From the NCBI GenBank assembly GCA_023430885.1, contig JAEYYH010000015.1, positions 3,743 through 67,742 of the forward strand: DNA of 64,000 nucleotides, written 5' to 3'. The stretch's first letter is position 1. Each line of letters opens with the position of its first letter. Of this stretch, positions 4,607 to 51,973 are shown piece after piece. The notes beneath the pieces are model-generated. The model had not been told where the DNA came from, did not search any database, and was given only the letters and a program-made list of their open reading frames with translations. Origin of the DNA: Bacillota bacterium (GTDB lineage Bacteria; Bacillota_I; Bacilli_A; RF39; UBA660). The translations under genes and the position numbers were made by a program.

Positions 4607-4687
4607 AAAACTCTTTTACATTTATTAAAAGTATGGTATAATTTATTATAGATAAAATAGAGTAAAAGGGAATTGAAGGTGCTGCTT

Positions 4688-6973
4688 ATGCAAAATAAAC
4701 CTATATACTTATGGCCATTTATTGTAGTATATAGAATTGTAATAATGATTCTAAAGCTCCCATTAGCTATAATACATTACTTTTTAATGGGATTCTTTTT
4801 TTCAATATATACATTAATAGAAATATTTGTTGATATGGGAATATTTATTTCTTTTGTTTGGTGGAAATTTATTAAATATTTATTCTTAGGAATATCTTTG
4901 CCTATTGTATTAATAGGAAGAACATTAAAGCACACTAAAGATACTGCTATTAATGAAGAAGCTATTATTCCAAAACATGTAAAAGAGACTTCTAAGAATA
5001 AGTTTCCTAAACCAGTAAAAGCAATAGCCGCCGCTGCAGCTACTGCAGGTGTACTTAATGCTGGACCATTACCAGCAAAGGAAATGAGTAAAGCTGAGAT
5101 TGGAAAAGTTGATAAAGAACTTGAAAAATTAAAAAAAGAAAATGAAAAAGAAGCTGCAATTCATCAAAAGAAAATGGATGAACTTCATAAAAAAGAAGAA
5201 ATTAAAGCTGCTAAAGAAAAAATAAAATTAGATAAAATAACAAAGAAAAAAGAGGCTGAAGAATTAGCTAGACAAAAACAAGATGCTGAAAATCAAATAA
5301 AAGAACAGCAAATGCTTATGAGAGAAGAAAAACGTAAGCAAGAAGCTGCGGTAGCATTTGAGAAGAAAAAACTGGAAGAGTCCATAGTTAAAGAAAAGAA
5401 AGAAAAGCCAAAAAGCTTAGCCCAAACAAAAAAAGAACAAGCAAAAGCTGAAAAAATAAGATTAAAACAAGAAAAAATACAACATAAAAAAGAATTATTA
5501 GCAGAGCGAAAAAAATTCAAAGAGAAAAATACATATGTTAATGATAAAGTTGTTATTGAGAAGAAAAATCTTGGTGACTATATTAACTCTGGATTAGAGC
5601 AATTAATTAAAGTTCCTAAGATGTTTAAAGAGAAAGTTAAAAACAGTTTCTCTAATTCAGCATTTGTAAAGAATAGACGTAATGTTGAAGATATGCATCG
5701 TGAAGCATTGCTTATCGACTTTACAGGCGATGATGCCAAAAAGAGCGATAAAAAAATTGTTTATGAATATGTTGGAAAGAATGTTGAAGGAAAATTAGTA
5801 AAGGCATATTTTGAAGCTTTTTCTAAAGTTGAAGTTCACTCATTCTTACTTAGTGAAGGTTTTGAAGTATATAGTATAAAGACCAGTCCTTTGATTCAGT
5901 TCTTGCATGGAGCAAAACAATCTAGATCTGTTAGATTTAAAAATAAAGATTTAATATTTTTCTTAACTCAATTATCAACTTATATAAAAGCAGGTATACC
6001 ACTTGTTGAATCACTTAGAATACTAAGTAGACAGTTTCCTCAAAAGGGATATCAAAAAGTATTTAGGTCTATGATTTATGAGTTGACGATGGGGGATAAC
6101 TTTAGCGTAGCTTTAGAGAAGCAAGGTAATGCTTATCCAAAATTACTTGTAAACATGGTAAAGACTTCAGAAATGACTGGAGAACTTCCAGAAACACTTG
6201 ATGATATGCAAATATATTTTGCAGAAGCAGAAAAAACAAAAAAACAAATGATTACAGCACTTACTTATCCAACGATTGTATTTGTGCTTGCAATTGCTGC
6301 TATTACCTTCATCATGATATATATAGTTCCACAGTTTGCTGGAATATATGCTGATATGGATAATGCTAAATTGCCAGGCATAACAGTAGCAATCATGAAT
6401 GTCAGTGATTTCTTAAAGAATTATTGGATATATTTAATTGCGGTAGTATTTGGCGTTATATTTATATTTGGCTATTTATATCGTAATGTTAAATTATTTA
6501 GAACATTAATTCAGTGGTTTTTAATGAAATTACCAGTTATAGGGGATGTAATGATATATAATGAAGTTACGATGTTTACTAAAACATTTGCTTCTTTATT
6601 AAAACATAATGTATTCATTACTGATACAATGGAAATTTTGAATAAGATTACGAATAATGAAATTTGGAAAATGATTATTTTAGACACAATTACAAACCTA
6701 GCGAAAGGTGAGAAAATATCTCTTGCTTTCCAAGATCACTGGGCTGTACCAATTCCAGCTTACGAAATGATTGTTACTGGCGAAAGAACTGGTCAGTTAC
6801 CTGAAATGATGCAAAAAGTATCAGATTATTATCAAGAACTTCATAAGAATGCAGTAGGGAGAATTAAAGCATTTATTGAACCAATACTTATTTTATTTCT
6901 TACCGGAGCAGTAGGTGTTATTGTTCTTTCAATAGTAATACCAATGTTTGATATGTATTCACAATTAAGTTAG
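4688..6973 (+). CDS. pilC: Type IV pilus assembly platform protein (PilC/GspF family) with a long N-terminal extension of TM helices plus a Lys/Glu-rich helical region.
   Basis: The C-terminal ~400 aa contain two GspF-type domains (FLTQLSTYIKAGIPLVESLRIL...; LAFQDHWAVP...). The ATG at 4688 has the SD gaaggtg; the track TTG at 4673 is less likely. The N-terminal 360 aa are extra relative to typical PilC. Confidence 0.8.
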   Translation: MQNKPIYLWPFIVVYRIVIMILKLPLAIIHYFLMGFFFSIYTLIEIFVDMGIFISFVWWKFIKYLFLGISLPIVLIGRTLKHTKDTAINEEAIIPKHVKETSKNKFPKPVKAIAAAAATAGVLNAGPLPAKEMSKAEIGKVDKELEKLKKENEKEAAIHQKKMDELHKKEEIKAAKEKIKLDKITKKKEAEELARQKQDAENQIKEQQMLMREEKRKQEAAVAFEKKKLEESIVKEKKEKPKSLAQTKKEQAKAEKIRLKQEKIQHKKELLAERKKFKEKNTYVNDKVVIEKKNLGDYINSGLEQLIKVPKMFKEKVKNSFSNSAFVKNRRNVEDMHREALLIDFTGDDAKKSDKKIVYEYVGKNVEGKLVKAYFEAFSKVEVHSFLLSEGFEVYSIKTSPLIQFLHGAKQSRSVRFKNKDLIFFLTQLSTYIKAGIPLVESLRILSRQFPQKGYQKVFRSMIYELTMGDNFSVALEKQGNAYPKLLVNMVKTSEMTGELPETLDDMQIYFAEAEKTKKQMITALTYPTIVFVLAIAAITFIMIYIVPQFAGIYADMDNAKLPGITVAIMNVSDFLKNYWIYLIAVVFGVIFIFGYLYRNVKLFRTLIQWFLMKLPVIGDVMIYNEVTMFTKTFASLLKHNVFITDTMEILNKITNNEIWKMIILDTITNLAKGEKISLAFQDHWAVPIPAYEMIVTGERTGQLPEMMQKVSDYYQELHKNAVGRIKAFIEPILILFLTGAVGVIVLSIVIPMFDMYSQLS

Positions 6974-6992: not shown

Positions 6993-7757
6993 ATGGATTT
7001 GTATTATACAATAGTTATGTTTGTATTTGGAACCATCTTTGGTTCCTTTTACAACGTAGTAGGCGATAGATTACCGGATGGTAAGTCAATAATTAAGCCA
7101 GGAAGTCATTGTCCAAAATGTGGGCATATGCTTAAACCAATTGAGTTGGTGCCAATTTTCTCTTTTATAATTCAAGGTGGAAAGTGTAAAAAGTGTAAAT
7201 GCAAAGTTCCAATCTTTCATCCATTATATGAAATATTTGTTGGATTGTTATTTATGTTTTGCTATCTTTCATTTGGATTTAGTGCTAATTTAGTAGTAGC
7301 ATTAACATTTGCATCAATGCTTGCTATACTTATAGTAAGCGATTATTACTACATGATAATACCAGATGAGGTACTTGTAGTGTTTGGGGTTTTACTTGTT
7401 ATTGAAACGGCAATATTTCAAGGACCTATGGTACTATTAACTTCAATTTTAAATGGATTAATAGCTTTTGGATGTATGTTTGGATTAAAAAAATTTGGTG
7501 ATCTATTATTTAAAACTGATTCTATGGGTGGTGGCGATATTAAGTTACTATTCTTCTTTGGATTTGTTTTGGGCTGGGAGATGGCAATATTTGCTATATT
7601 CCTTGGATCATTAATTGGGTTGCCAGTTTCTTTAATAATATTAAAAACAAAAAAAACAAATATTATACCATTTGGACCATTTTTATCAATAGGCGCACTT
7701 ATTATAATGCTAACGCATTTTGATATTACAAAATTATTAAGTATATTACTTCAGTAA
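6993..7757 (+). CDS. pilD: Prepilin peptidase (A24 family).
   Basis: N-terminal zinc-ribbon CPKCGH...CKKCKC, multiple TM helices, GGGDIKLL motif. Confidence 0.85.
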   Translation: MDLYYTIVMFVFGTIFGSFYNVVGDRLPDGKSIIKPGSHCPKCGHMLKPIELVPIFSFIIQGGKCKKCKCKVPIFHPLYEIFVGLLFMFCYLSFGFSANLVVALTFASMLAILIVSDYYYMIIPDEVLVVFGVLLVIETAIFQGPMVLLTSILNGLIAFGCMFGLKKFGDLLFKTDSMGGGDIKLLFFFGFVLGWEMAIFAIFLGSLIGLPVSLIILKTKKTNIIPFGPFLSIGALIIMLTHFDITKLLSILLQ

Positions 7758-23323: not shown

Positions 23324-24307
23324 ATGTTTTTTAAAAAACTAGCGAAACCCGTACTTCTTCTTTCACTATTAGTTAGTATTCCAACAAACACTTATGCTTA
23401 TTCAGACTATCTCGCAGTAGGTGGAGACACAATAGGTATTACAATTAACACCGAAGGTATATTAGTGGTAGGAACATACATGGTAGGTGGTAATTTACTT
23501 GCTTCTGACTCAGATATCAAAATTGGCGACGTTATTGTTTCTAGTAATAAAAGCAATATAACTACTATTGAAGATTTTATGAATACTATTGATAGTAAAA
23601 CTTGCGAAAAATTAGATGTTAAATATAAGAGAGACAATAAGACCTATAGTACTACATTAAAATTAGCTATTGATGAAAACACTTGTAAAACTGGTCTTTA
23701 TGTTAAAGACAGTATTACTGGTATAGGTACACTTACGTTTATAGATCCTAATACTAAAATATTTGGTGCATTAGGTCATGAAATATTAGAACAATCTACT
23801 GGTAAAATAGTGGATACCGAAAGTGGTACTATATTTGATTCTGAAGTTATAAATGTAGAAAAAAGTACTAATGGTACACCTGGTGAAAAGAATGCCAGGT
23901 ATTATAGTTCACAGGTAGATGGAACTATATATGAAAATACTACCAAAGGTATATTTGGTTATTACTCTAGTAACATAGATAGTAGTAATTTGTATAAAGT
24001 TGCAAAAGTGCAAAATATTAAAAAAGGTGAAGCAAAAATACTGACAGTTTTATCCGGTACTGAAATTAAAGAATATAGTATAAATATTACCAAGATTAAT
24101 AATAATGGAGATACTAAAAATTTAGTGTTTGAAATAACAGATACTGATCTTTTAGAAAAAACTGGTGGCATAGTGCAAGGAATGAGTGGCTCTCCAATTA
24201 TTCAAGGTGACTACATAATTGGAGCAGTAACACACGTGGTGGTTGAAAATCCTACAAAAGGGTACGGAATATTCATAACTAATATGTTGGAGGAAGCAGA
24301 AAATTAA
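23324..24307 (+). CDS. spoIVB: Stage IV sporulation protein B (SpoIVB peptidase, S55).
   Basis: Signal sequence, PDZ region (GDVIVS), S55 catalytic region GALGHEI...GMSGSPI. A CATACTA -10-like element at 23285-23291 is consistent with a forespore sigma F/G promoter. Confidence 0.85.
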   Translation: MFFKKLAKPVLLLSLLVSIPTNTYAYSDYLAVGGDTIGITINTEGILVVGTYMVGGNLLASDSDIKIGDVIVSSNKSNITTIEDFMNTIDSKTCEKLDVKYKRDNKTYSTTLKLAIDENTCKTGLYVKDSITGIGTLTFIDPNTKIFGALGHEILEQSTGKIVDTESGTIFDSEVINVEKSTNGTPGEKNARYYSSQVDGTIYENTTKGIFGYYSSNIDSSNLYKVAKVQNIKKGEAKILTVLSGTEIKEYSINITKINNNGDTKNLVFEITDTDLLEKTGGIVQGMSGSPIIQGDYIIGAVTHVVVENPTKGYGIFITNMLEEAEN

Positions 24308-24498
24308 GAGACTTAAAGTCTCTTTTTATTTCAAAATAATTAATCATATAGAGTTTACTACTAAACAATAATATAAAATAATTTAGTTTTTATAAATAAT
24401 ATATAAAAATAAATGCAAACTAATATAGAGATTATTATTTAAAAAATGATAATACAATATGTATGACAAATTATTATATAAAAGAAAGGAGTAACAAT

Positions 24499-25053
24499 AT
24501 GAAAAGAAACAACAACAAAATATTTATCATATTTGCATTAGCTATAGCTGTTACAGTGATGTCAGTTGGTTATGCAGCGTTAGCTAATCAATTAACTATT
24601 ACCGGAACATCAGGTACAGGAAATGCTTCATGGAATATATCGTTCTTGTCAATAACAAAAAATGCAACCTTATCTACAGCTAGTGCTACTGAAGTTAGTG
24701 CACCAACTGCATCCGGCTTAGCAGCTACATTTGATGTAACTGTTTCAGAACCTGGTGCTACAATCGTGTATGATATAATTGTTCAAAATACTGGTACTAT
24801 AGATGCAACACTTTCAGCTATTACAGGACTATTAGAAATAAATCAAGCAGAACCAACTGCTATCACTTATACTTTTAATAGATTAAATCCCATAACTGAT
24901 GAAATATTAAGTGATACTGGCGATTTATTACATGGAACAACTAATAAGTTTAGATTAACTATCACTTGGCCATCTACCTCAACAAGTGTTCCAACTGGGA
25001 CGACTTCCAAATCTGGAACAATTTATTTAGATTACGTTCAAAAAACATCTTAG
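24499..25053 (+). CDS. Secreted Thr/Ser/Ala-rich protein with a TasA/camelysin-like (SipW-cognate-type) N-terminal signal. Putative fibre or matrix protein.
   Basis: MKRNNNKIFIIFALAIAVTVMSVGYAALANQLTITGTS resembles the GGGT[FW]AAF signal-peptide junction of TasA/CalY. The SD aaaggag precedes the ATG at 24499 (track start 24463 is unlikely). Confidence 0.45.
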   Translation: MKRNNNKIFIIFALAIAVTVMSVGYAALANQLTITGTSGTGNASWNISFLSITKNATLSTASATEVSAPTASGLAATFDVTVSEPGATIVYDIIVQNTGTIDATLSAITGLLEINQAEPTAITYTFNRLNPITDEILSDTGDLLHGTTNKFRLTITWPSTSTSVPTGTTSKSGTIYLDYVQKTS

Positions 25054-25100
25054 TAAATGAAGAATATAGTTATTCTTACATTCGTGAATAGGGTGATTAT

Positions 25101-25940
25101 ATGAGAAGATTAAAGAAAAGAAAAAAGAATAACTTTACTTATATGATAGCACTATACATAATAATGCTTGTTACAATAAGTACTGCTTATTCTTTTTTAA
25201 ATACTGATTTATCATTAAAAGGAAAAGCCGGCTTTTCTAAAAGTGCTTCTTACAATTATAGCTATAAGTATGTATTGGATAATAAGTGGGGAAATTATAC
25301 ATATCAAATATCTTCAACAATTACATATTTAGGACAAAATGATATAACTAGTTGGAAGGCATATGTATATGTTCCAGTAGCAAGCATAGTGAATGGCTGC
25401 TACAATGCTTTGTCCTGTACTATAAATGGTAATATTATGACTGTAACAAGTCCTACAAATTATAATCATAATTTGTCTACAAACTCAACTTTAGTTTTTT
25501 CTTTTCAATTAACTACTAATACTCCAACATATTTTGAGGAATATAGGATAATAGGAATGAGTTTTTATTCTGGTGCTATCACAGATGATCCTAATCCGGA
25601 CACCAGTCTTGATTTTGTAAGCAACACATTAAGTATAACTGGCGGATGGAATAAAGTTACAACTTATAAGTATGTGGTAACTAATAATTCTTCTACTAAG
25701 AGTCTTGCAAAATGGTCCATTGATATAACATTCCCAAAGAACTCAACAGTAACAGCTTTTTGGGGCGGAACATACACTTATGACAAAAAAACAGGAATAA
25801 TAATTGTTTCTAATCCATCATGGCCATTAACATTAGCTCCTGGGCAAACTGAGGTAGTTGAATTTTATGTAGATACCGGTTTAGCAACGGGATATATGCC
25901 TAGAGTAGGGACATTTACAGCAACAATAATATATGGTTAA
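25101..25940 (+). CDS. Secreted or anchored protein with a similar TasA-like signal junction (TAYSFLNTDLSLKG).
   Basis: N-terminal basic region plus a hydrophobic helix then AYSFLNTD. Good SD. Confidence 0.4.
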   Translation: MRRLKKRKKNNFTYMIALYIIMLVTISTAYSFLNTDLSLKGKAGFSKSASYNYSYKYVLDNKWGNYTYQISSTITYLGQNDITSWKAYVYVPVASIVNGCYNALSCTINGNIMTVTSPTNYNHNLSTNSTLVFSFQLTTNTPTYFEEYRIIGMSFYSGAITDDPNPDTSLDFVSNTLSITGGWNKVTTYKYVVTNNSSTKSLAKWSIDITFPKNSTVTAFWGGTYTYDKKTGIIIVSNPSWPLTLAPGQTEVVEFYVDTGLATGYMPRVGTFTATIIYG

Positions 25941-26161
25941 TATAAGGGGTATATTATGAAATTTGATTTTAAAAAAACTATTCTTTATTTATTATTTATG
26001 TCATATTTAATATTTTATAGTGTTTTTAGCAACGATATTTTATCTAATAAATTTGTAAACTTAATAAATCTGTCATTTTAATTATATTTTTTGTATTTGC
26101 TTTCTTTATTATTAAAACTTTTAAACAAAGAATCAAACAAGAAACTAACAAAATACAAACT

Positions 26162-27133
26162 GTGTTTATTATTATAACAATTTATCTTATGATATATTTT
26201 TCTCTGGGATTAATAACAGGATATGGGCGTAGTATATATAATCACTCTTTATTTGGCTATATTCAAAATATTTGGATCTATATATTTCCTATAATATGTA
26301 TTGAGTATTTAATGTATATCTTTATAAAGAATAATAATAATAAATGGTTTTATATTTTAAATATATTAGTATTTTCCTTATATGATATTCCAATATACAC
26401 TTTTATTAAATCTGGATATACTTTAGAAGAATTATTTACCCATAGTTGTTCAATTATACTACCAGCTCTAGCAAGTAATGCTATTTTAATTTATTTAACA
26501 AAAACAAGCGGTTATAAAAGTACACTAACTTACTTAATTCCCCAAAAATTATTTATGATATTTTTGCCATTACTACCAAATTTAGATTGGTATTATACTG
26601 CAATAGCAGGTACAATGCTTCCGTTTATTACATATATTTCTATAAAAGTTATTCAAGATAAAGTTACTAATCAAGTTTCCAGAAAAAATCTGACACATCT
26701 AAATAGTGTAAGGTATATACCAGTAATTTTGATGGTAACATCATCCTTTCTATTTATAACAGGCGTATTTAAGTATGAACCAATAGCTATTTTATCTAAT
26801 AGTATGCATCCTTTATATAATAGAGGAGATGTTATAATTATAGAAAAAATGGGCATAAATGATCTTAATAATCTTAATGAACAAGATATAATTGAGTATA
26901 ATTTAAATGGTATTTTTATAGCGCACCGTATAGTAAGTGTTGAAAAACATAATGATGGCACTGTTTTATATACTACAAAAGGAGATAATAATAACACAAT
27001 TGATAAAGAAAAAGTTTCTCCTAGTCAGATAAAAGGTGTTGTAAGATTTACAGTTTCAAAAATTGGTTATCCATCAGTATGGTTAAGTGAATTATTTAGT
27101 AAAAAGAATGTAACAATAGAAACTGGAAATTAA
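26162..27133 (+). CDS. sipW: SipW-type (Ser/His, archaeal/ER-type) signal peptidase I fused to an N-terminal ~210-aa polytopic membrane domain.
   Basis: SNSMHPLYNRGDVIIIEK (catalytic Ser box) and IFIAHRIVSV (His box). The upstream frame is open for about 600 nt with about 6 TM helices. The start is uncertain (GTG at 26162; no clear SD). Confidence 0.65.
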   Translation: MFIIITIYLMIYFSLGLITGYGRSIYNHSLFGYIQNIWIYIFPIICIEYLMYIFIKNNNNKWFYILNILVFSLYDIPIYTFIKSGYTLEELFTHSCSIILPALASNAILIYLTKTSGYKSTLTYLIPQKLFMIFLPLLPNLDWYYTAIAGTMLPFITYISIKVIQDKVTNQVSRKNLTHLNSVRYIPVILMVTSSFLFITGVFKYEPIAILSNSMHPLYNRGDVIIIEKMGINDLNNLNEQDIIEYNLNGIFIAHRIVSVEKHNDGTVLYTTKGDNNNTIDKEKVSPSQIKGVVRFTVSKIGYPSVWLSELFSKKNVTIETGN

Positions 27134-27152
27134 GAAAGTAAGGAGATGACAT

Positions 27153-28223
27153 ATGCAGAATTGTACTAATTACCAAAGAAAAAACGTATTAAGATTAGGT
27201 GTTCGTTTAACTCTAGGTTTTGTTTTAATTGCTGCCATAATCGTCTCCTTACTACAAATTACTCTAGCTATAATATATACAAACAAACAAACTGATAAAA
27301 TTTTATATACTTATAATATTAATCAAAAAGCAGATTATAGTGTAGAATTATATGACAATAATTTTGTTGATACAACTACCATGGAATCTGGCAAAGTATA
27401 TATTTCAGATTTAGTTAAACAAGTTAATTTTAAATTTTTATATACGTATTCGGGAACAACCAATAATGACTTCAAATATAATTATAATGTAGTTGGAAAG
27501 CTTATTGGTCAAAGCAATGCTAATGAAACCACTGAAACAGTATGGGAAAAATCATATACTTTAGTAGAGGAAGTTACAGAAACAAAGAAACAAACTTCCA
27601 GTTTTGCAATCGATATTCCTCTTGCACTAGATTATTCTTTATATGCAAATGAAGTATCCGAATTTAAAAAAAATTTTGGAATGATACTTTCGACAAAATT
27701 ACAAATTACAATGACAGTTAATGTTTTAAGTAGTTACAATGAAAAAGAAATTAGTAATACTCAAAAAATAATTATGTATATACCTATTGGGTTACAAGCT
27801 TTTTCTATAACAAGTGATTATAAAGAAAATACTGTAGATTATATTTATGATGTCGGTAGTCGTCTGAAGTTTTACAATGATTCTAATTTTATAATGGGAA
27901 CAATCGAATTTATTATTTCTTTTTTCTTTTTTGTATATTTATTCAAACTAATATTTAATATAAAATGTAAAAACAAATATTCTAAAAGATTAGATCAAAT
28001 CTTGAAAACTTATGGTAGTATAATCGTAGAGGTTTTGAACCCAGTTAAGGAAGAAAAATATGAAATAATTGAAGTGAAAAACTTTGATGAAATGATTGAC
28101 TTAGAAGAAGAACTTCGAATACCAATTACATTTAATGAAGTTATACCAACAAGATATGGCGTATTTACTTTGTTACATAATAATACTATTTATAAATATA
28201 GTTTAAAAAATAAGGATTTATAA
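27153..28223 (+). CDS. Bitopic membrane protein, hypothetical (large extracytoplasmic domain between two TM helices).
   Basis: SD aaggaga. N-terminal TM LGFVLIAAIIVSLLQITLAII and a second TM IEFIISFFFFVYLFKLIF. Confidence 0.5.
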   Translation: MQNCTNYQRKNVLRLGVRLTLGFVLIAAIIVSLLQITLAIIYTNKQTDKILYTYNINQKADYSVELYDNNFVDTTTMESGKVYISDLVKQVNFKFLYTYSGTTNNDFKYNYNVVGKLIGQSNANETTETVWEKSYTLVEEVTETKKQTSSFAIDIPLALDYSLYANEVSEFKKNFGMILSTKLQITMTVNVLSSYNEKEISNTQKIIMYIPIGLQAFSITSDYKENTVDYIYDVGSRLKFYNDSNFIMGTIEFIISFFFFVYLFKLIFNIKCKNKYSKRLDQILKTYGSIIVEVLNPVKEEKYEIIEVKNFDEMIDLEEELRIPITFNEVIPTRYGVFTLLHNNTIYKYSLKNKDL

Positions 28224-28350: not shown

Positions 28351-28932
28351 ATGAAAATTCCATTAAGATTTCAGATAACAGAATTTGATTGTGGTACATT
28401 AGCACTTCAAAATGCTATAAGTTTTTTATATGAAAGAGAGACTATTCCAGCTGATCTTATTAGAGCAGTATCAACGTATACTTTAGATTGCTATGGCGAA
28501 GATGGTAAATTAGGAGATGGTGGTACTAGTAAAGAAGCTATGAATTTAATGACTACTTGGATAGAGGGGTATGCTAAAAGAAATTTATTTGACATTCACT
28601 GTGAGAGATATACTGATAAAGATGTTACTTTAAGTTTAATAAGAATATGTTTATTTAAAAACGGTGTCGTTTTAATAAGAACTTATCAAGTTGGTGAACA
28701 CTATGCTATTGTAACGCATATAGATGATGAGTATGTTTATATATGGGATTCATATTATTTAGATGAAGACTATTATGACCCTGATAATAAAGTTACAATA
28801 ATATTTGATAAACCTTTTGATTACAATCGTAAAGTAGCATTAGATAGATTTGTATCAGAAATTAAAAAAGATTTCGCATTAGGACCAATAGAAAATAGAG
28901 AATGTGTTCTATTTAGTAGAAAACAATTTTAG
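28351..28932 (+). CDS. Papain-fold cysteine peptidase-like protein (C39-like domain), hypothetical.
   Basis: FDCGTLALQNA (Cys), later GEHYAIVTHIDDE (His/Asp), typical spacing for C39-like peptidase domains. This is an inference from motifs only. Confidence 0.35.
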   Translation: MKIPLRFQITEFDCGTLALQNAISFLYERETIPADLIRAVSTYTLDCYGEDGKLGDGGTSKEAMNLMTTWIEGYAKRNLFDIHCERYTDKDVTLSLIRICLFKNGVVLIRTYQVGEHYAIVTHIDDEYVYIWDSYYLDEDYYDPDNKVTIIFDKPFDYNRKVALDRFVSEIKKDFALGPIENRECVLFSRKQF

Positions 28933-28946
28933 GAGATTATAAGAGT

Positions 28947-29780
28947 ATGGAAATATTAGACGGTAAAAAAGTTAGTCAAGAAAAAAGACAATATTATAAA
29001 GAAAAAATTAAGGATTTAGAAAGTAGACCTAGTCTAATAGTTCTAACAGTTAATCCTGGCGAAGCGAGTAGCATTTATATAAATCAAAAAGAAAAAGCTT
29101 GTGGGGAACTGGGAATTGATTTTAAGAAGCAAGTTTTTTTGGAAACTGTTTCCCAAGATGAAATAATAGATATTATTCATAAATTAAATTTAGATGATAG
29201 TATTGATGGTATCCTTTTACAACTACCTATACCTTCTCATTTAAATGCCCGTGATATTATAAATGAAATAGATCCTTCAAAGGATGTAGATGGATTAACT
29301 GATGCAAATGCTGGTGGGCTAATTCATAATCAAGATGTTTTAAAGCCATGTACAGCTCTTGGCGTTATAGATTTATTAGATGCCTATAACATAGATTTAG
29401 CTGGTAAAAATGTGTTATTAGTTGGGCGAAGTGATCTTGTAGGCAAACCTTTAATACCTTTGTTCTTAAATAGAGATTCAACAGTTACTATAGCACATAG
29501 TAAAAGTGATAATCTTAAAAAACTTGCTTTGCTTGCAGACATAATTGTAGTAGCAACGGGTAAACCCGGCTTGATTACTGATGATATGGTTAAACAAGGA
29601 GCGGTTGTAGTAGATGTTGGAATTAACAGAATAGATGGTAAAATCGTTGGTGATGTTGATTTTGATACAGTAAAAGACAAAACATCTTATATTACACCTG
29701 TACCAGGTGGTGTAGGACCGATGACTATTGTTTCACTTATTAGAAATGTATATTTTGCGCATTTAAATAGAAAAAAATAA
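28947..29780 (+). CDS. folD: Bifunctional methylenetetrahydrofolate dehydrogenase/cyclohydrolase.
   Basis: ILDGKK...SSIYINQKEKAC, VGRSDLVGKPL, PVPGGVGPMTIVSL. Confidence 0.9.
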   Translation: MEILDGKKVSQEKRQYYKEKIKDLESRPSLIVLTVNPGEASSIYINQKEKACGELGIDFKKQVFLETVSQDEIIDIIHKLNLDDSIDGILLQLPIPSHLNARDIINEIDPSKDVDGLTDANAGGLIHNQDVLKPCTALGVIDLLDAYNIDLAGKNVLLVGRSDLVGKPLIPLFLNRDSTVTIAHSKSDNLKKLALLADIIVVATGKPGLITDDMVKQGAVVVDVGINRIDGKIVGDVDFDTVKDKTSYITPVPGGVGPMTIVSLIRNVYFAHLNRKK

Positions 29781-36107: not shown

Positions 36108-36135
36108 AAAGTAGATTACTCTACTTTTTTATTTT
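36107..36135. terminator. Bidirectional terminator between the merR-like gene and glmS.
   Basis: A-run, aagtagattactctactt hairpin, then T-run. Confidence 0.6.
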
Positions 36136-37946
36136 TATTCAACGGTAACTGATTTAGCAAGATTTTTTGGTTTGTCTATATCACATTTACGATATTTTGC
36201 AATTTCGTAAGAAATTAACTGTAATGGAACTACTGTTAATACAGCTTGAATTAATTTATTTGTTCTTGGAATAATAACCTTTTGATCATAAAAATTATCG
36301 TTAACATCTAAATCTTCAGTAATTATTAAAGTAACATTAGCACCACGTGCTTTGCATTCTTTAATGTTGCTAATTGTTTTTTCAGCTATTTTTGCCTCTG
36401 TTACAATAGCAATAACTGGTGTACCTTTATCTATTAAAGATATAGTACCATGCTTTAGTTCTCCAGCAGGATAACACTGAGAGTTGATATAAGATATCTC
36501 TTTAAGTTTTAACGATCCTTCCATAGCTAGAGCGTAATCAACATTTCTTCCTATAAAGAATACATCATTATGTTTATATAATTTCTTAGCAATATTTTTA
36601 TAATCTTCATGTTCATTTAATACAGATTGAATATTTGTTGGCAATTTTCTAATACAAGATATAGCTTCATTTGCTTCCTTATCACTCATTGAACCATTAT
36701 TAACAGCCATATTTATAGCAATTAAGGATAGCATAGTAACTTGAGCACTGTAAGCCTTTGTAGTGGCAACAGCTATCTCAGTACCAGCTTTTGTATATAA
36801 GACCATATCGGCATTCCTAGAAATTGTACTTCCAACTACGTTGATAATACCAAGGGTATCAGCACCAGCTTCTTTAGCAACTTTTAACGCAGCTAAAGTA
36901 TCTGCTGTCTCTCCTGATTGAGAAACTACAATTACTAAAACTTTGTTATTTAAAAATAATCTTTTATAACGATATTCACTTGCTACTTCAATATTAGTTG
37001 GAATATTTGCAAATTCTTCAATTATACTTTTCCCAACCATACCAGCATGCATTGCACTACCACAAGCGACAATATCTATTCGCTCATATTTACTGAAATT
37101 TGGCATGTTTTCTTTTAAACTCTGTACACCATTTTCTATATAAGGTAGGGCAGTAGCTTTAATTATTTCAGGTTCTTCAAATATTTCTTTAAGCATGTAA
37201 TGTTCATAACCGTTTTTATCAATTACATTACTACTTCCTTCAAAAATTTTAATATCTTTTTTAATAATATCAGCATTTCTATCGTATACAACAACTCTAT
37301 CATTACTCATTTTGGCAAATTCACCATCATCAAGAATAATATATTTATTTGTATATTTTAATATTGCAGGAACATCACTAGCAATATAATTTTCTTTATC
37401 ACCAATTGCAATAATTAGTGGACTATCTTTTTTAACCGCATATAAATGATGAAGATGATCATCACAAATAATTCCTAAAGCATATGCTCCAATTGCTCTT
37501 TCTTTAAAAATAGCAATAGTTTGTTCCATACTACCTGTTTCTTTATAAATATGATCAAGTAGGGCACACGCTACTTCTGTATCAGTAGAAGATTTAAAAG
37601 TATAACCTTCTTCAGTTAAATCCTTTTTTATATCCATATAATTTTCAATAATTCCATTATGAACTATTGAAATTTTGCCTACTTTATGAGGATGACTATT
37701 AATATAGTTAGGTTCCCCATGAGTAGCCCATCTAGTATGTCCTATACCTAAATTTGACTCTGTTTTTATATTTAATTTGTTCTTTAAGTTCGCAATTTTG
37801 CCTTTTTCTTTTTCTATTTCAAGTTTATCATTTTTAACAAAGGCAATTCCTGCTGAATCATAACCTCTATATTCTAGTCTTTCAAGACCGTCTATAATAA
37901 CTTGTAGGCATCTTTTATCGCCTACATAACCAATAATACCACACAT
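36135..37946 (-). CDS. glmS: Glutamine--fructose-6-phosphate aminotransferase.
   Basis: MCGIIGYVG N-terminal nucleophile, two SIS domains, 603 aa. Confidence 0.95.
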   Translation of the reverse strand: MCGIIGYVGDKRCLQVIIDGLERLEYRGYDSAGIAFVKNDKLEIEKEKGKIANLKNKLNIKTESNLGIGHTRWATHGEPNYINSHPHKVGKISIVHNGIIENYMDIKKDLTEEGYTFKSSTDTEVACALLDHIYKETGSMEQTIAIFKERAIGAYALGIICDDHLHHLYAVKKDSPLIIAIGDKENYIASDVPAILKYTNKYIILDDGEFAKMSNDRVVVYDRNADIIKKDIKIFEGSSNVIDKNGYEHYMLKEIFEEPEIIKATALPYIENGVQSLKENMPNFSKYERIDIVACGSAMHAGMVGKSIIEEFANIPTNIEVASEYRYKRLFLNNKVLVIVVSQSGETADTLAALKVAKEAGADTLGIINVVGSTISRNADMVLYTKAGTEIAVATTKAYSAQVTMLSLIAINMAVNNGSMSDKEANEAISCIRKLPTNIQSVLNEHEDYKNIAKKLYKHNDVFFIGRNVDYALAMEGSLKLKEISYINSQCYPAGELKHGTISLIDKGTPVIAIVTEAKIAEKTISNIKECKARGANVTLIITEDLDVNDNFYDQKVIIPRTNKLIQAVLTVVPLQLISYEIAKYRKCDIDKPKNLAKSVTVE

Positions 37947-37959
37947 TTTTACTTCCTCC

Positions 37960-38135
37960 TGTGCATTTTTTGCATAATAAAAATATATGTGTGATATATT
38001 TTTTGTCGTAATATTGATTTTACTATTTGTAATATATCTTTCGAATACACTTCCGTAGTAGCATCCGCTGATTACCTTATAATATAAGTTCGATAACTAC
38101 TATCCTCGTCAGCCCTTAGGCCCATGCGCTAATTA
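37960..38135 (-). ncRNA. glmS ribozyme: glmS ribozyme (GlcN6P-responsive self-cleaving riboswitch) in the glmS leader.
   Basis: The minus-strand RNA reads ...uuA|GCGCAUGGGCCUAAGGGCU GACGAGGAUAGUAGUUAUCGAACUUAUAUUAUAAGGUAAUCAGCGGAUGCUACUACGG.... This matches the conserved P2/P2.1 core GACGAGGAUGGAGGUUAUCGAA...GGCGGAUGCCUCC with compensatory changes (GUAGUAG/CUACUAC). Confidence 0.7.
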
Positions 38136-38174
38136 AAATGTTTCAGTTCTATCCTCCTATGAACATAATAACTT

Positions 38175-50440: not shown

Positions 50441-50470
50441 AAACGACACTATATACGGTGTCGTTTTTTT
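50441..50470 (+). terminator. Terminator after ftsZ.
   Basis: acgacac tatatac ggtgtcgt followed by a T-run. Confidence 0.6.
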
Positions 50471-50489
50471 ATAATATAGATGGTGATAT

Positions 50490-51288
50490 TATGAAAGTAT
50501 ATATAGATTTAGTATTAATACTTAATTTTCTTATAGATTTGGTTGTTTTAATTACTACTTCGTATGTACTTAAACGAAATATTAAGAGTATTAGGCTTGT
50601 ATTAGGCGCTTTAGTAGGATCATTAACAACACTATTTCTTTTCATTAAACTTAGCTCAGTAACATTGTTTTTATTAAAAGTAGTAATAAGTATTTTAATG
50701 ACTATTACTACTTTTTCATATCGAAATATAAAATACACTTTAAAAAATATTAGTTATTTATATATAGTAAGTATTATTTTAGGAGGATTTATATATTTTT
50801 TAAATATTCAATTCTCTTATAAAAATATTGGTTTTGTTTTTAGGAGATATGGTCTTAGTATTAACTATATATTTATTCTTCTTTTTTCACCTATAATATT
50901 ATATTTATATTCTAAACAAGTAAAAGAATTAAAAAATAACTTTTCTAATTATTATAAAGTAGACATACATTTAAATAATTATATTATCAAGGTTAATGCT
51001 TTTTTAGATACAGGTAATAAACTTGTTGATCCTTATTTAAAAAGACCAGTTATTATTTTAAATAGAAAAAAGATAATATATGATATTAATGAATTTCAAA
51101 TGGTTTTGGTGCCTTATAAGACTATAACTGAGTCTAAGGTATTAGATTGTATTATTGCCTCTAAAGTTGTTATAAAGGGCATTGGAAGTAAAAATAATGT
51201 ACTTGTAGGGCTTATGGACGATAACTTGAAAATAAATGGTGTAGATTTAATATTAAATACAAAATTACTGGAGGAAATAAATGTTTAA
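50490..51288 (+). CDS. spoIIGA: Sigma-E processing peptidase SpoIIGA.
   Basis: MKVYIDLVLILNFLIDLVVL, a typical SpoIIGA N-terminus. Membrane domain plus C-terminal aspartic protease region (FLDTGN). Immediately upstream of sigE. Confidence 0.8.
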
Positions 51289-51973
51289 AAAATTAATAGA
51301 TTTTATAGTAAGTATTTTTAATGATGAAGTAAATATATTCTTTATAGGTTCAGCTGATAAATTACCTGAACCACTAACTAAAGAAGATGAAGTAAAGTAT
51401 GTAGAATTATCTATGCTAGGAGATGAATCAGCAAGGAAAAAACTTATTGAACATAACTTAAGACTAGTTGTATTCTTATCAAAAAAATATGAAAATACTG
51501 GTGTTGATTTAGAAGATTTAGTAAGTATAGGAACAATAGGATTAATAAAAGGTGTCAATACTTATAAACTTGATAAAAATATTAAACTTGCTACTTATGC
51601 ATCAAGATGTATTGATAATGAAATACTAATGTTTTTAAGAAAAAATAAAAAAAGAAAAACAGAGATAAGTTTTGAAGATAGTTTAAGTTATGATAGTGAA
51701 GGTAATGAACTACATTTAGAAGATATACTTGGTACTGAAGATGATGTAGTTACTAAATGTATTGAGGATTCAGATGATAAAAAACTTTTGTATAAAGTTA
51801 TAACTAACTTAAATGATCGTGATAGACAAATAATGATTTTAAGATATGGACTATATAATAAAGAAGAAATGACTCAAAAGGATGTCGCAAGTTTACTTGG
51901 TATTAGTCAATCTTATATATCAAGAATAGAAAAGAAGGTAATTAAGAAACTTAAAATATTATCTAAAATTTAA
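51281..51973 (+). CDS. sigE: RNA polymerase sporulation sigma factor E (pro-sigma-E).
   Basis: N-terminal pro-sequence, region 2 (LRLVVFLSKKY...DLVSIGTIGLIKGVNTY), region 4 (QKDVASLLGISQSYISRIE). Confidence 0.9.
   Translation: MFKKLIDFIVSIFNDEVNIFFIGSADKLPEPLTKEDEVKYVELSMLGDESARKKLIEHNLRLVVFLSKKYENTGVDLEDLVSIGTIGLIKGVNTYKLDKNIKLATYASRCIDNEILMFLRKNKKRKTEISFEDSLSYDSEGNELHLEDILGTEDDVVTKCIEDSDDKKLLYKVITNLNDRDRQIMILRYGLYNKEEMTQKDVASLLGISQSYISRIEKKVIKKLKILSKI

Follow-up and report, generated by a model that had tools for sequence, protein, structure and literature searches.

Within a 64,000-nucleotide stretch of a Bacillota genome (assembly GCA_023430885.1, contig JAEYYH010000015.1, positions 3,743 to 67,742; referred to as the window), four consecutive genes at 24499-28223 probably constitute a self-contained cassette for the production of extracellular fibres of the TasA superfamily, belonging to the AbpX branch. 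They encode two exported proteins (orfA and orfB), a polytopic signal peptidase that is interrupted in this genome by the loss of a single base, and a protein of the DUF5305 family. An initial annotation of this DNA had proposed a dedicated system for the processing of fibre or matrix proteins, of the TasA/SipW kind, and our analysis supports this view. The features of the region are the following (aa, amino acids; ORF, open reading frame; TM, transmembrane).

24306-24324 (24306..24333 with the T-run), + strand: terminator-like hairpin after spoIVB, with an 8-bp stem and a T-rich tail
24499-25053, + strand: orfA, ORF of 184 aa, AbpX-like (TasA superfamily), putative major fibre subunit
24499..24621, + strand: signal-anchor, predicted junction and predicted donor strand of orfA, delimited by the sequence logo, the AbpX alignment and low pLDDT
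25101-25940, + strand: orfB, ORF of 279 aa, with a signal and junction as in orfA and with CBM_2-like domains
25956..27133, + strand: gene for the polytopic signal peptidase I, 392 aa if restored, interrupted by a 1-nt deletion
25956-26081, + strand: apparent 41-codon ORF, in fact the start of the peptidase gene, cut off by the frameshift
26162-27133, + strand: 323-codon ORF of the window, the remainder of the peptidase gene
26069..26071, + strand: frameshift site, the Pro39 codon (CCT) being short of one C by DNA alignment with the related loci L001, L002 and L003
25956..26668, + strand: N-terminal 8-helix membrane module (N-domain), residues 1-238 of the restored peptidase, from the AlphaFold2 model, Foldseek and conservation
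26705..26761, + strand: TM helix 9, residues 251-269, a helix of the AlphaFold2 model preceded by the positive loop 239-250
26774..27064, + strand: S26 catalytic domain, residues 274-370, from TIGR02228, the SEC11A/C alignment and Foldseek
27153-28223, + strand: DUF5305 protein, 356 aa (PF17231), putative accessory subunit of the signal peptidase
28351-28932, + strand: 193-aa ORF with a sub-threshold DUF3335/C39-like match

The order orfA, orfB, peptidase, DUF5305 and 193-aa ORF on the + strand is borne out by the list of ORFs, and these five genes are flanked by spoIVB (23324-24307, Peptidase_S55) and folD (28947-29780). A ribosome-binding site (RBS; aaaggag at 24486-24492) stands 7 nt before the ATG of orfA at 24499. 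Given this good RBS and the hairpin that follows spoIVB, we regard the cassette as a transcription unit of its own, and its start coincides with the coordinate, 24499, at which the initial annotation had placed the beginning of the module.

Related cassettes were collected at 83 loci, namely those of three close relatives and of 80 species representatives of GTDB, the latter retrieved by a scan with a peptide pattern that excluded the species of the window itself. Their hosts are mostly gut metagenome-assembled genomes labelled Bacilli, Tenericutes/Mycoplasmatota or Clostridia. The membrane part and the catalytic part of the peptidase are fused in all 83, with no stop or frameshift dividing them, and the DUF5305 gene lies directly 3' of the peptidase gene, likewise in 83/83. 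Genes resembling orfA are found 5' of the peptidase gene in 72/83 loci, in 1-7 copies; an orfB-like gene is present in 28/83, and further loci have other large proteins that bear the same junction motif. No other neighbour is conserved among these loci, and the flanking genomic contexts differ. Tandem arrays of 4-7 orfA-like paralogues 5' of the peptidase gene occur at nine of them (L011, L013, L017, L023, L026, L045, L048, L054 and L067), which suggests diversification or variation of the subunits. The closest cassette relatives retrieved from GTDB by the scan that excluded the window's own species are 49% identical, so this species seems poorly represented. The 193-aa ORF, which had been counted as a C39-like peptidase-fold member of the system, does not belong to it: outside the three closest relatives no locus has it next to the cassette (3/83 loci), its match to DUF3335 is below threshold (E 0.0027, 17.6 bits vs 25), and a sequence search of the PDB found no match for it. 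By hydropathy it is cytoplasmic, with the papain/C39-like signature FDCGTLAL ... GEHYAIV ... D, and we rejected it as a component of the cassette.

The two upstream genes had been singled out for signal junctions of the TasA/camelysin type, VGYAALANQLTI and TAYSFLNTDLSL. Both are present, and both are part of a strongly conserved motif that is TasA-like and has no lipobox. In 103 distinct orfA-like sequences, M is found in 100%, Y in 99%, L in 97% and G in 92%, the consensus being L(94%)...M(100%)-[A/S]-V-G-Y(99%)-A-A-[F/L]-A-[T/Q]-Q-L(97%)-[T/N]-I-N-G(92%)-T-A(88%)...W(80%). Conservation thus extends to both sides of the predicted cut, and an amphipathic strand reaches 20 residues into the mature protein. 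In orfA the junction reads ...VMSVGYA↓ALANQLTITGTSGTG (the arrow marks the predicted cut), with cleavage expected after codon 26 (nt 24576/24577); in orfB it reads STAYS↓FLNTDLSLKG, with cleavage expected after codon 31 (nt 25193/25194). In line with a type I site, positions -3 and -1 carry small residues (G-Y-A↓ in orfA, A-Y-S↓ in orfB). At mature position 2, counted from the predicted cut, the family has F in 66% and L in 33%, with L in the orfA of the window and F in orfB.

The TasA junction is T-W-A↓A-F-N-D, and the form [GT]-aromatic-A↓A-[FL] seen here, with a bulky P2' residue, parallels it; this resemblance was judged by inspection. In TasA the P2' residue is aromatic, and because of this Phe ordinary LepB-type enzymes process the protein poorly (PMC10269814). 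No model of the SipW-cognate signal type matched orfA or orfB at E<=1 in the NCBIfam library, in which the presence of TIGR04088 is unverified. A lipoprotein reading of the substrates was rejected, as there is no Cys near the junction. Class III prepilin signals have the form G↓F-x-x-x-E. One relative of orfA has been labelled PilV by the Joint Genome Institute (JGI), and the type IV pilin reading was rejected as well, since the junction is not class III and the partner peptidase is of family S26, not A24.

The assignment of orfA to the TasA superfamily comes from profile comparison with AbpX of Pyrodictium abyssi, whose sequence was taken from the supplement of bioRxiv 10.64898/2026.01.04.697558. 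In hhalign the orfA profile matched AbpX with 89% probability and E 2.3e-6, with 144-151 co-linear columns across runs, and a profile built from 114 sequences gave 88%, E 3e-6 and a score of 42.8; none of 20 shuffled controls exceeded a score of 18 or a probability of 1.1%. The alignment is co-linear throughout, pairing IGLTYA↓QWSETLSLSATIS with MSVGYA↓ALANQLTITGTS and ENVGTIPA with QNTGTIDA, so taking in the N-x-G-T-I-[DP]-A strand as well as the C-terminal strand. Pairwise BLASTP of orfA against AbpX was insignificant, and profiles alone detect the relationship. The isoelectric points are similar (4.39 for orfA, 4.05 for AbpX). By sequence searches orfA is a small family (48 matches); orfA-like genes are abundant beside the peptidase gene in other genomes. 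The camelysin/TasA family PF12389 (Peptidase_M73) is matched by 3/27 orfA relatives (best E 3.7e-4), and orfA of the window does not match it. In view of the differences from AbpX in acidic residues given below, we class orfA as AbpX-like within the TasA superfamily and not as an orthologue of AbpX.

The second substrate has little in common with the first apart from its N-terminus: orfB and the orfA profile share only the N-terminal 41 residues. Two stretches of orfB match Pfam CBM_2 (E 1.1e-11), and its weak sequence matches in the PDB are to CBM2 modules. Many loci have, at the position of orfB, either an orfB-like protein or another motif-bearing protein of 270-470 aa, and the N-terminal segment is the only part that these hold in common. 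We regard orfB as a putative minor, tip or adhesin subunit.

The peptidase is, by its sequence motifs, a Ser/His/Asp signal peptidase I of the endoplasmic reticulum (ER)/archaeal type (S26B). The 323-aa ORF matches TIGR02228 (sigpep_I_arch) over its residues 189-315 with 67.5 bits, above the cut-off of 51.85 (E 1.2e-18). Both catalytic boxes that had been read from the sequence, SNSMHP (Ser) and IAHRIV (His), are present, and in a profile search of the PDB the SxSM, HR and GDNN boxes align with those of human SEC11A/C (E 8e-18). In the numbering of the restored protein the catalytic residues are Ser283 (26801-26803), His324 (26924-26926) and Asp344 (26984-26986), and S283, H324, D344 and D350 are invariant in 42 family sequences. 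The best Foldseek matches are to the human signal peptidase complex (7P2Q/7P2P, E 6e-5) and to the pilus-associated SipA of S. pyogenes. Against NF046067, the equivalog model for SipW, the peptidase scored 63.3 bits, far below the cut-off of 190, and it is therefore related to SipW but is no SipW orthologue.

An AlphaFold2 model of the restored peptidase, made from an alignment of 42 sequences (pLDDT 85, pTM 0.79), has nine membrane helices at residues 5-24, 30-52, 63-88, 99-124, 130-151, 157-185, 187-203, 212-238 and 251-269, followed by a beta-rich domain (274-370) and a short C-terminal helix. The proposed fusion of a polytopic membrane part to the catalytic domain in a single frame thus stands, with the correction that the membrane part comprises ~270 aa and nine predicted helices rather than ~210 aa and ~6. 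Positive charges cluster at the N-terminus and in segments 53-62 and 239-250, which would fit an N-in topology with the catalytic domain outside. The ninth helix is the counterpart of the one anchor helix that ordinary SipW/Sec11-type peptidases have at their N-terminus.

The N-domain, comprising the first eight helices, has no match in Pfam or NCBIfam, and the PDB profile search with the peptidase matched the S26 domain alone. A profile of the N-domain matched 1,578 clusters at 50% identity, of which 1,235 were at E<=1e-10. The best 150 of these matches are all fusions of 360-400 aa or fragments, and on this basis the fusion is old and widespread. Invariant in the family are G85, N105, E117, F161, Y180, P205, P208 and W212, and nearly so R120, Y77, Y81, G89, Y95 and P170. 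Residue 120 (26312-26314) is Met both in the window and in its nearest homologue (P0001), this being the position of the Arg of the E-x-x-R in TM helix 4 in ~90% of the family. Only two polytopic membrane proteins stand among the 50 matches listed by Foldseek, SpdC of Staphylococcus aureus (6u0o_A: probability 0.99, TM-score 0.53 normalised by target, 265 columns, E 0.046) and the CAAX protease Rce1 (4cad: probability 0.82-0.91, TM-score 0.48), both with moderate scores. We take this as moderate evidence that the N-domain is a CAAX-protease-like (CPBP-like) bundle of eight helices that, as modelled, would have both ends inside. A CPBP protein to serve as seed for profile comparison was sought in the window and at the 83 loci and none was found, so that the relationship is drawn from Foldseek alone.

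Both parts of the peptidase can be compared with the enzyme of P. abyssi, where the gene after abpX (L084:4876-6018) encodes a peptidase of 380 aa with hydrophobic segments throughout residues 18-272. The full-length family profile aligns with this enzyme at 98.7% probability, E 1.8e-16, over 316 co-linear columns that cover both parts, pairing GLVVGFG with G85..G89 and REMVR with E117..R120.

Downstream of the peptidase, the membrane protein described as bitopic is confirmed to have two TM helices, at residues 23-41 and 246-264, and a tail of 92 residues after the second. It belongs to DUF5305 (PF17231; 50.8 bits, gathering cut-off 29, E 1.9e-13). The segment between the helices is predicted to be extracellular and the tail cytoplasmic. 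In the literature DUF5305 turned up only in papers on archaeal TasA-like fibres. We infer that it is an accessory subunit of the signal peptidase, a role already proposed for TafG (PMC11821415) and in the AbpX preprint (bioRxiv 10.64898/2026.01.04.697558).

From these elements we propose the following process. The major subunit, orfA, and the larger CBM2-like orfB, probably a tip or adhesin subunit, would both be made with an N-terminal signal-anchor that ends in the near-invariant junction M-x-V-G-Y-A↓A-[F/L]-x-x-x-L-x-I-x-G-T. After export by Sec, the dedicated peptidase would cut behind G-Y-A (A-Y-S in orfB) by means of Ser283, His324 and Asp344, so freeing the amphipathic N-terminal beta-strand. 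The freed strand would then insert into the open beta-sandwich of the next subunit, and polymerisation would result from this donor-strand complementation. In the peptidase, the 8-helix CAAX-protease-like module that precedes the anchor helix and the catalytic domain would most likely dock the conserved membrane-embedded part of the signal and present the junction to the active site, and DUF5305, with its two TM helices, would act as the accessory subunit.

Several observations weigh against this proposal. The bacterial clade is known from genes and models alone. Foldseek with orfA gave weak matches to generic beta-sandwiches (best E ~0.01), the TasA fibre 8aur_A ranking third with a weak E of 0.013, and a PDB profile search with orfA matched only FimA, at E>0.3. 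Mature position 4 is not acidic, being N in orfA and T/Q in the family, and Asp and Glu make up 7.6% of orfA, compared with 14.9% of AbpX and a family median of 11.8%; for both reasons the calcium-clamp mechanism of AbpX is not expected here. No LPXTG anchor protein was found at the 83 loci by a search for the C-terminal pattern, SLH domains not having been looked for. As to the peptidase, PF02517 is matched by none of 42 family members at E<=0.1, so its relatedness to CPBP proteins amounts to TM-scores of ~0.5. The N-domain taken alone gave no significant match to that of P. abyssi (E 0.06, probability 0.9%), and an alignment of two archaeal sequences was too redundant to help; with the full-length alignment significant and the membrane part alone not, homology of the two N-domains is likely but not proven. 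The last of these points is that the reading frame of the peptidase is broken in this very window.

This break was the origin of a micro-ORF of 41 codons (25956-26081) that had been noted as a possible separate gene upstream of the peptidase. In every homologue its first 38 codons encode the beginning of the peptidase. The peptidases of close and distant relatives have ~380-395 aa, ~70 residues more than the 323-aa ORF, and the nearest homologue, P0001 (392 aa, 98% identical to the 323-aa ORF over the query), begins with MKFDFKKTILYLL / MKFDFKKTILYLLFMSYLIF, the sequence of the micro-ORF. At position 26070 one C is absent from the window (CCT to CT) in comparison with three independent assemblies (L001, L002 and L003), of which two are ~99% identical to the window while the third is more divergent, its peptidase being 80% identical at the protein level. 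The upstream frame then runs into a stop at 26079-26081, which creates the apparent micro-ORF, and the Shine-Dalgarno-like aaggggt before 25956 belongs to the peptidase gene. When the base is restored, the resulting 392-aa protein differs from P0001 in 4/392 residues and has no other defect. In this genome the cassette has accordingly either been inactivated very recently by a -1 frameshift or is affected by an error at one base of the assembly.

If the frameshift is real, the cassette is a recent pseudogene, without a full-length peptidase and with orfA and orfB not processed into fibres. We consider this a serious possibility, rating it somewhat below even chances. The deletion lies in a CC dinucleotide and not in a long homopolymer run, the frame is intact in all three independent assemblies, and the GTG at 26162, where the 323-codon ORF begins, has no preceding RBS. 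Over 12,961 aligned bases the window and L001 are 99.17% identical, with 105 substitutions and two indels, 26070 being the only one in coding sequence. The other is a missing A in an intergenic position (window 31882, position 11928 of L001, a 99%-identical Logan assembly). With just this one further indel in 12.9 kb, the assembly is not generally error-prone. Against inactivation, the 353 codons past the shift contain no further stop or shift and the protein has the 4 differences to P0001 mentioned above; a clean downstream frame of this kind fits a very recent event and a single consensus error equally. Two pattern scans of metagenomes for the frameshifted allele gave nothing or unrelated chance matches.

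A second explanation accepts the peptidase and its substrates and denies the fibres: orfA and orfB would be monomeric beta-sandwich proteins, secreted or on the cell surface (for example carbohydrate binders), that need a specialised peptidase. The CBM_2 domains of orfB speak for this, as do the lack in orfA of the calcium-binding acidic residue of AbpX, the weak structural matches to TasA and the failure of anchor or chaperone genes to be conserved among the 83 loci. We nevertheless think it unlikely. Profile homology links orfA to a protein whose donor-strand fibre structure has been solved, and the conserved amphipathic strand, running 20 residues into the mature protein, begins directly past the predicted cut site. 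The orfA model (AlphaFold2, pLDDT 86) has a beta-sandwich preceded by a TM helix and, at 31-46, by a segment of low confidence, with the N-terminal strand left unplaced in the monomer. The occurrence of several small paralogues with one large protein is, moreover, the pattern of major, minor and tip pilins. Fibre formation thus remains the explanation that we favour for the two substrates.

The membrane module itself might be an active intramembrane protease of the CPBP/Rce1 type, in which case the gene would encode a fusion of two proteases, the first degrading the signal peptide or making a second cut. The catalytic motifs of CPBP proteases are EExxxR (motif 1), FxxxH and HxxxN/D. For an active enzyme one can cite the fold matches to Rce1 and SpdC, the invariant Asn105, and, in TM helix 4, the invariant E117 with a nearly invariant Arg three residues on, resembling motif 1; this [Q/E]-E-x-x-R is the only conserved element in the family that is like a CPBP motif. 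The spacing from E to R is, however, one residue shorter than in motif 1, the family alignment of the N-domain contains no conserved His at all, FxxxH and HxxxN/D are absent, no family member matches PF02517, and the closest structural match, SpdC, works non-catalytically. Proteolysis by the N-domain is therefore improbable, in our estimate more so than a cassette without fibres. A CPBP-like fold that has no His motifs suggests a non-catalytic scaffold, which by analogy with SpdC is most likely the role of the N-domain. For SpdC the documented role is to orient an extracytoplasmic hydrolase as a scaffold, not as a catalyst, and its authors predicted the same role for other bacterial homologues of CAAX proteases (10.1101/2020.05.21.109470).

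The gene model first proposed, a peptidase of ~323 aa with ~6 TM helices alongside an independent hydrophobic micro-protein of 41 aa, agrees with the separation of the two frames in the window and with the aaggggt before 25956, and is refuted by the homologues, in all of which one protein of 392 aa starts with the first 38 residues of the supposed micro-protein, so that the model retains virtually no probability.

A more far-reaching extension of the scaffold idea, which we offer only tentatively and would ourselves bet against, is that the polytopic peptidase is a single-chain 'mini signal-peptidase complex'. A pseudo-enzyme of CAAX-protease fold would serve as the intramembrane receptor for the invariant signal-anchor of the subunits, and the peptidase and DUF5305 would jointly form an assembly platform that couples cleavage to donor-strand insertion at the base of the fibre. 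This would explain how four genes suffice without a conserved gene for a chaperone, an usher, a sortase or an anchor. It would also provide a second example, after SagB-SpdC, of a CPBP fold that positions an extracytoplasmic hydrolase; in this instance the means would be gene fusion, and the family would be one of >1,200 clusters, found above all in uncultured Bacilli of the gut.

SpdC and Rce1, the best structural matches of the N-domain among membrane proteins, have no detectable sequence homology to it, and they differ from it by the absence of His motifs here and by a TM-score of only ~0.5. In SagB-SpdC an extracytoplasmic hydrolase is scaffolded by SpdC with no use of protease residues, and a like role is proposed for the N-domain, with the differences that the N-domain and its hydrolase form one covalent chain and that this hydrolase is a peptidase, whereas the partner of SpdC is a glucosaminidase.

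The closest known system is that of the abpX loci, found in Pyrodictium abyssi and in relatives among both bacteria and archaea (Sleutel et al., bioRxiv 10.64898/2026.01.04.697558; Nat Commun 2025, PMC12518558). Common to both are small subunits in which a donor strand at the N-terminus is followed by a beta-sandwich (each of these being predicted here), a larger minor or tip subunit (putative here), the junction ...T/G-Y-A↓x-aromatic/L-x-x-x-L-x-L/I, and, beside the AbpX-like subunits, a polytopic peptidase of ~380-390 aa of the TIGR02228 type together with DUF5305. The present cassettes differ in the CBM_2 domains of orfB, in the lack of a conserved regulator gene or LPXTG anchor at the 83 loci (with the limits of the pattern search given above) and in their hosts, which are mostly uncultured low-GC gut Bacilli and Clostridia. 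The AbpX-associated signal peptidase I of bacteria and archaea is described with ten TM helices and with DUF5305 as its putative accessory subunit (bioRxiv 10.64898/2026.01.04.697558), compared with nine and a short C-terminal helix in our model. The peptidase architecture, thought novel in the initial annotation, has thus been known at the bioinformatic level since January 2026. New here are the frameshift, the size of the family and its host range, to which we add the four-gene minimal cassette, the invariant junction motif and a CAAX-protease-like fold with loss of the His motifs; as an observation, this fold of the membrane module, which is that of a model, appears to be new.

SipW is a small protein with one N-terminal anchor helix, and DUF5305 is not known from the tapA-sipW-tasA operon of Bacillus. 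The B. subtilis system resembles the cassette in having a dedicated Ser/His signal peptidase of ER/archaeal type encoded beside the fibre subunits and a junction of the form [T/G]-aromatic-A↓A-F with a bulky P2' residue. It differs in that here an 8-helix module precedes the anchor, there is no TapA, and orfA falls below the threshold of Pfam Peptidase_M73. TasA fibres form by donor-strand exchange (PMC9674648, PMC10269814).

In the Tafi system of haloarchaea, deletion of the signal peptidase TafD blocks pilin processing, so that its requirement has been established experimentally (PMC11821415, PMC12337348). As in the present cassette, the peptidase is paired with a DUF5305 protein (TafG). The pilins are TafA/E; TafD has four TM helices and an extra C-terminal domain, and the subunits are exported by Tat and belong to another branch of the superfamily. 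The eukaryotic signal peptidase complex (SEC11A/C with SPCS1-3; 7P2P, 7P2Q) is the closest solved relative of the catalytic domain and likewise surrounds its catalytic subunit with extra membrane helices and a beta-sandwich accessory protein, to which the AbpX preprint likens DUF5305 (bioRxiv 10.64898/2026.01.04.697558). The difference is that here the extra helices are fused into one chain.

It is becoming apparent that biofilm matrices are built from TasA-superfamily fibres across domains of life, and many uncultured gut Bacilli and Clostridia of low GC content have a compact version of four genes. With at most four conserved gene families, of which the peptidase and DUF5305 alone occur at all 83 loci, the cassette offers a tractable system for asking how a dedicated signal peptidase recognises its substrates and what the extra helices and DUF5305 contribute. 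The CAAX-protease-like fold leads to a testable hypothesis, namely that the module is a scaffold rather than an enzyme, and the invariant junction motif provides a simple means of finding substrates in genomes. For annotation, one frameshifted gene should be entered in place of a micro-ORF and a truncated peptidase.

Elsewhere in the window, a gene at 4673-6973 (+) encodes a platform protein of a type IV pilus or type II secretion system (T2SSF, E 1e-44; unusually long at 766 aa, ~400 of them in an N-terminal extension) and is followed at 6993-7757 (+) by a prepilin peptidase (A24_N_bact and Peptidase_A24), so that another filament system, unrelated to the cassette, exists in this organism. 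A complete glmS ribozyme/riboswitch (Rfam RF00234, 60 bits) lies at 37983-38141 (-), upstream of an ORF of 603 aa at 36135-37946 (-). Sporulation genes on the + strand, encoding SpoIVB (S55, the 5' neighbour of the cassette) and SpoIIGA (U4, 50458-51288), identify the source as a low-GC (~28%) endospore-former, and directly 3' of the SpoIIGA gene, at 51281-51973 (+), is a sigma-70-family factor that by its position is possibly sigma-E.

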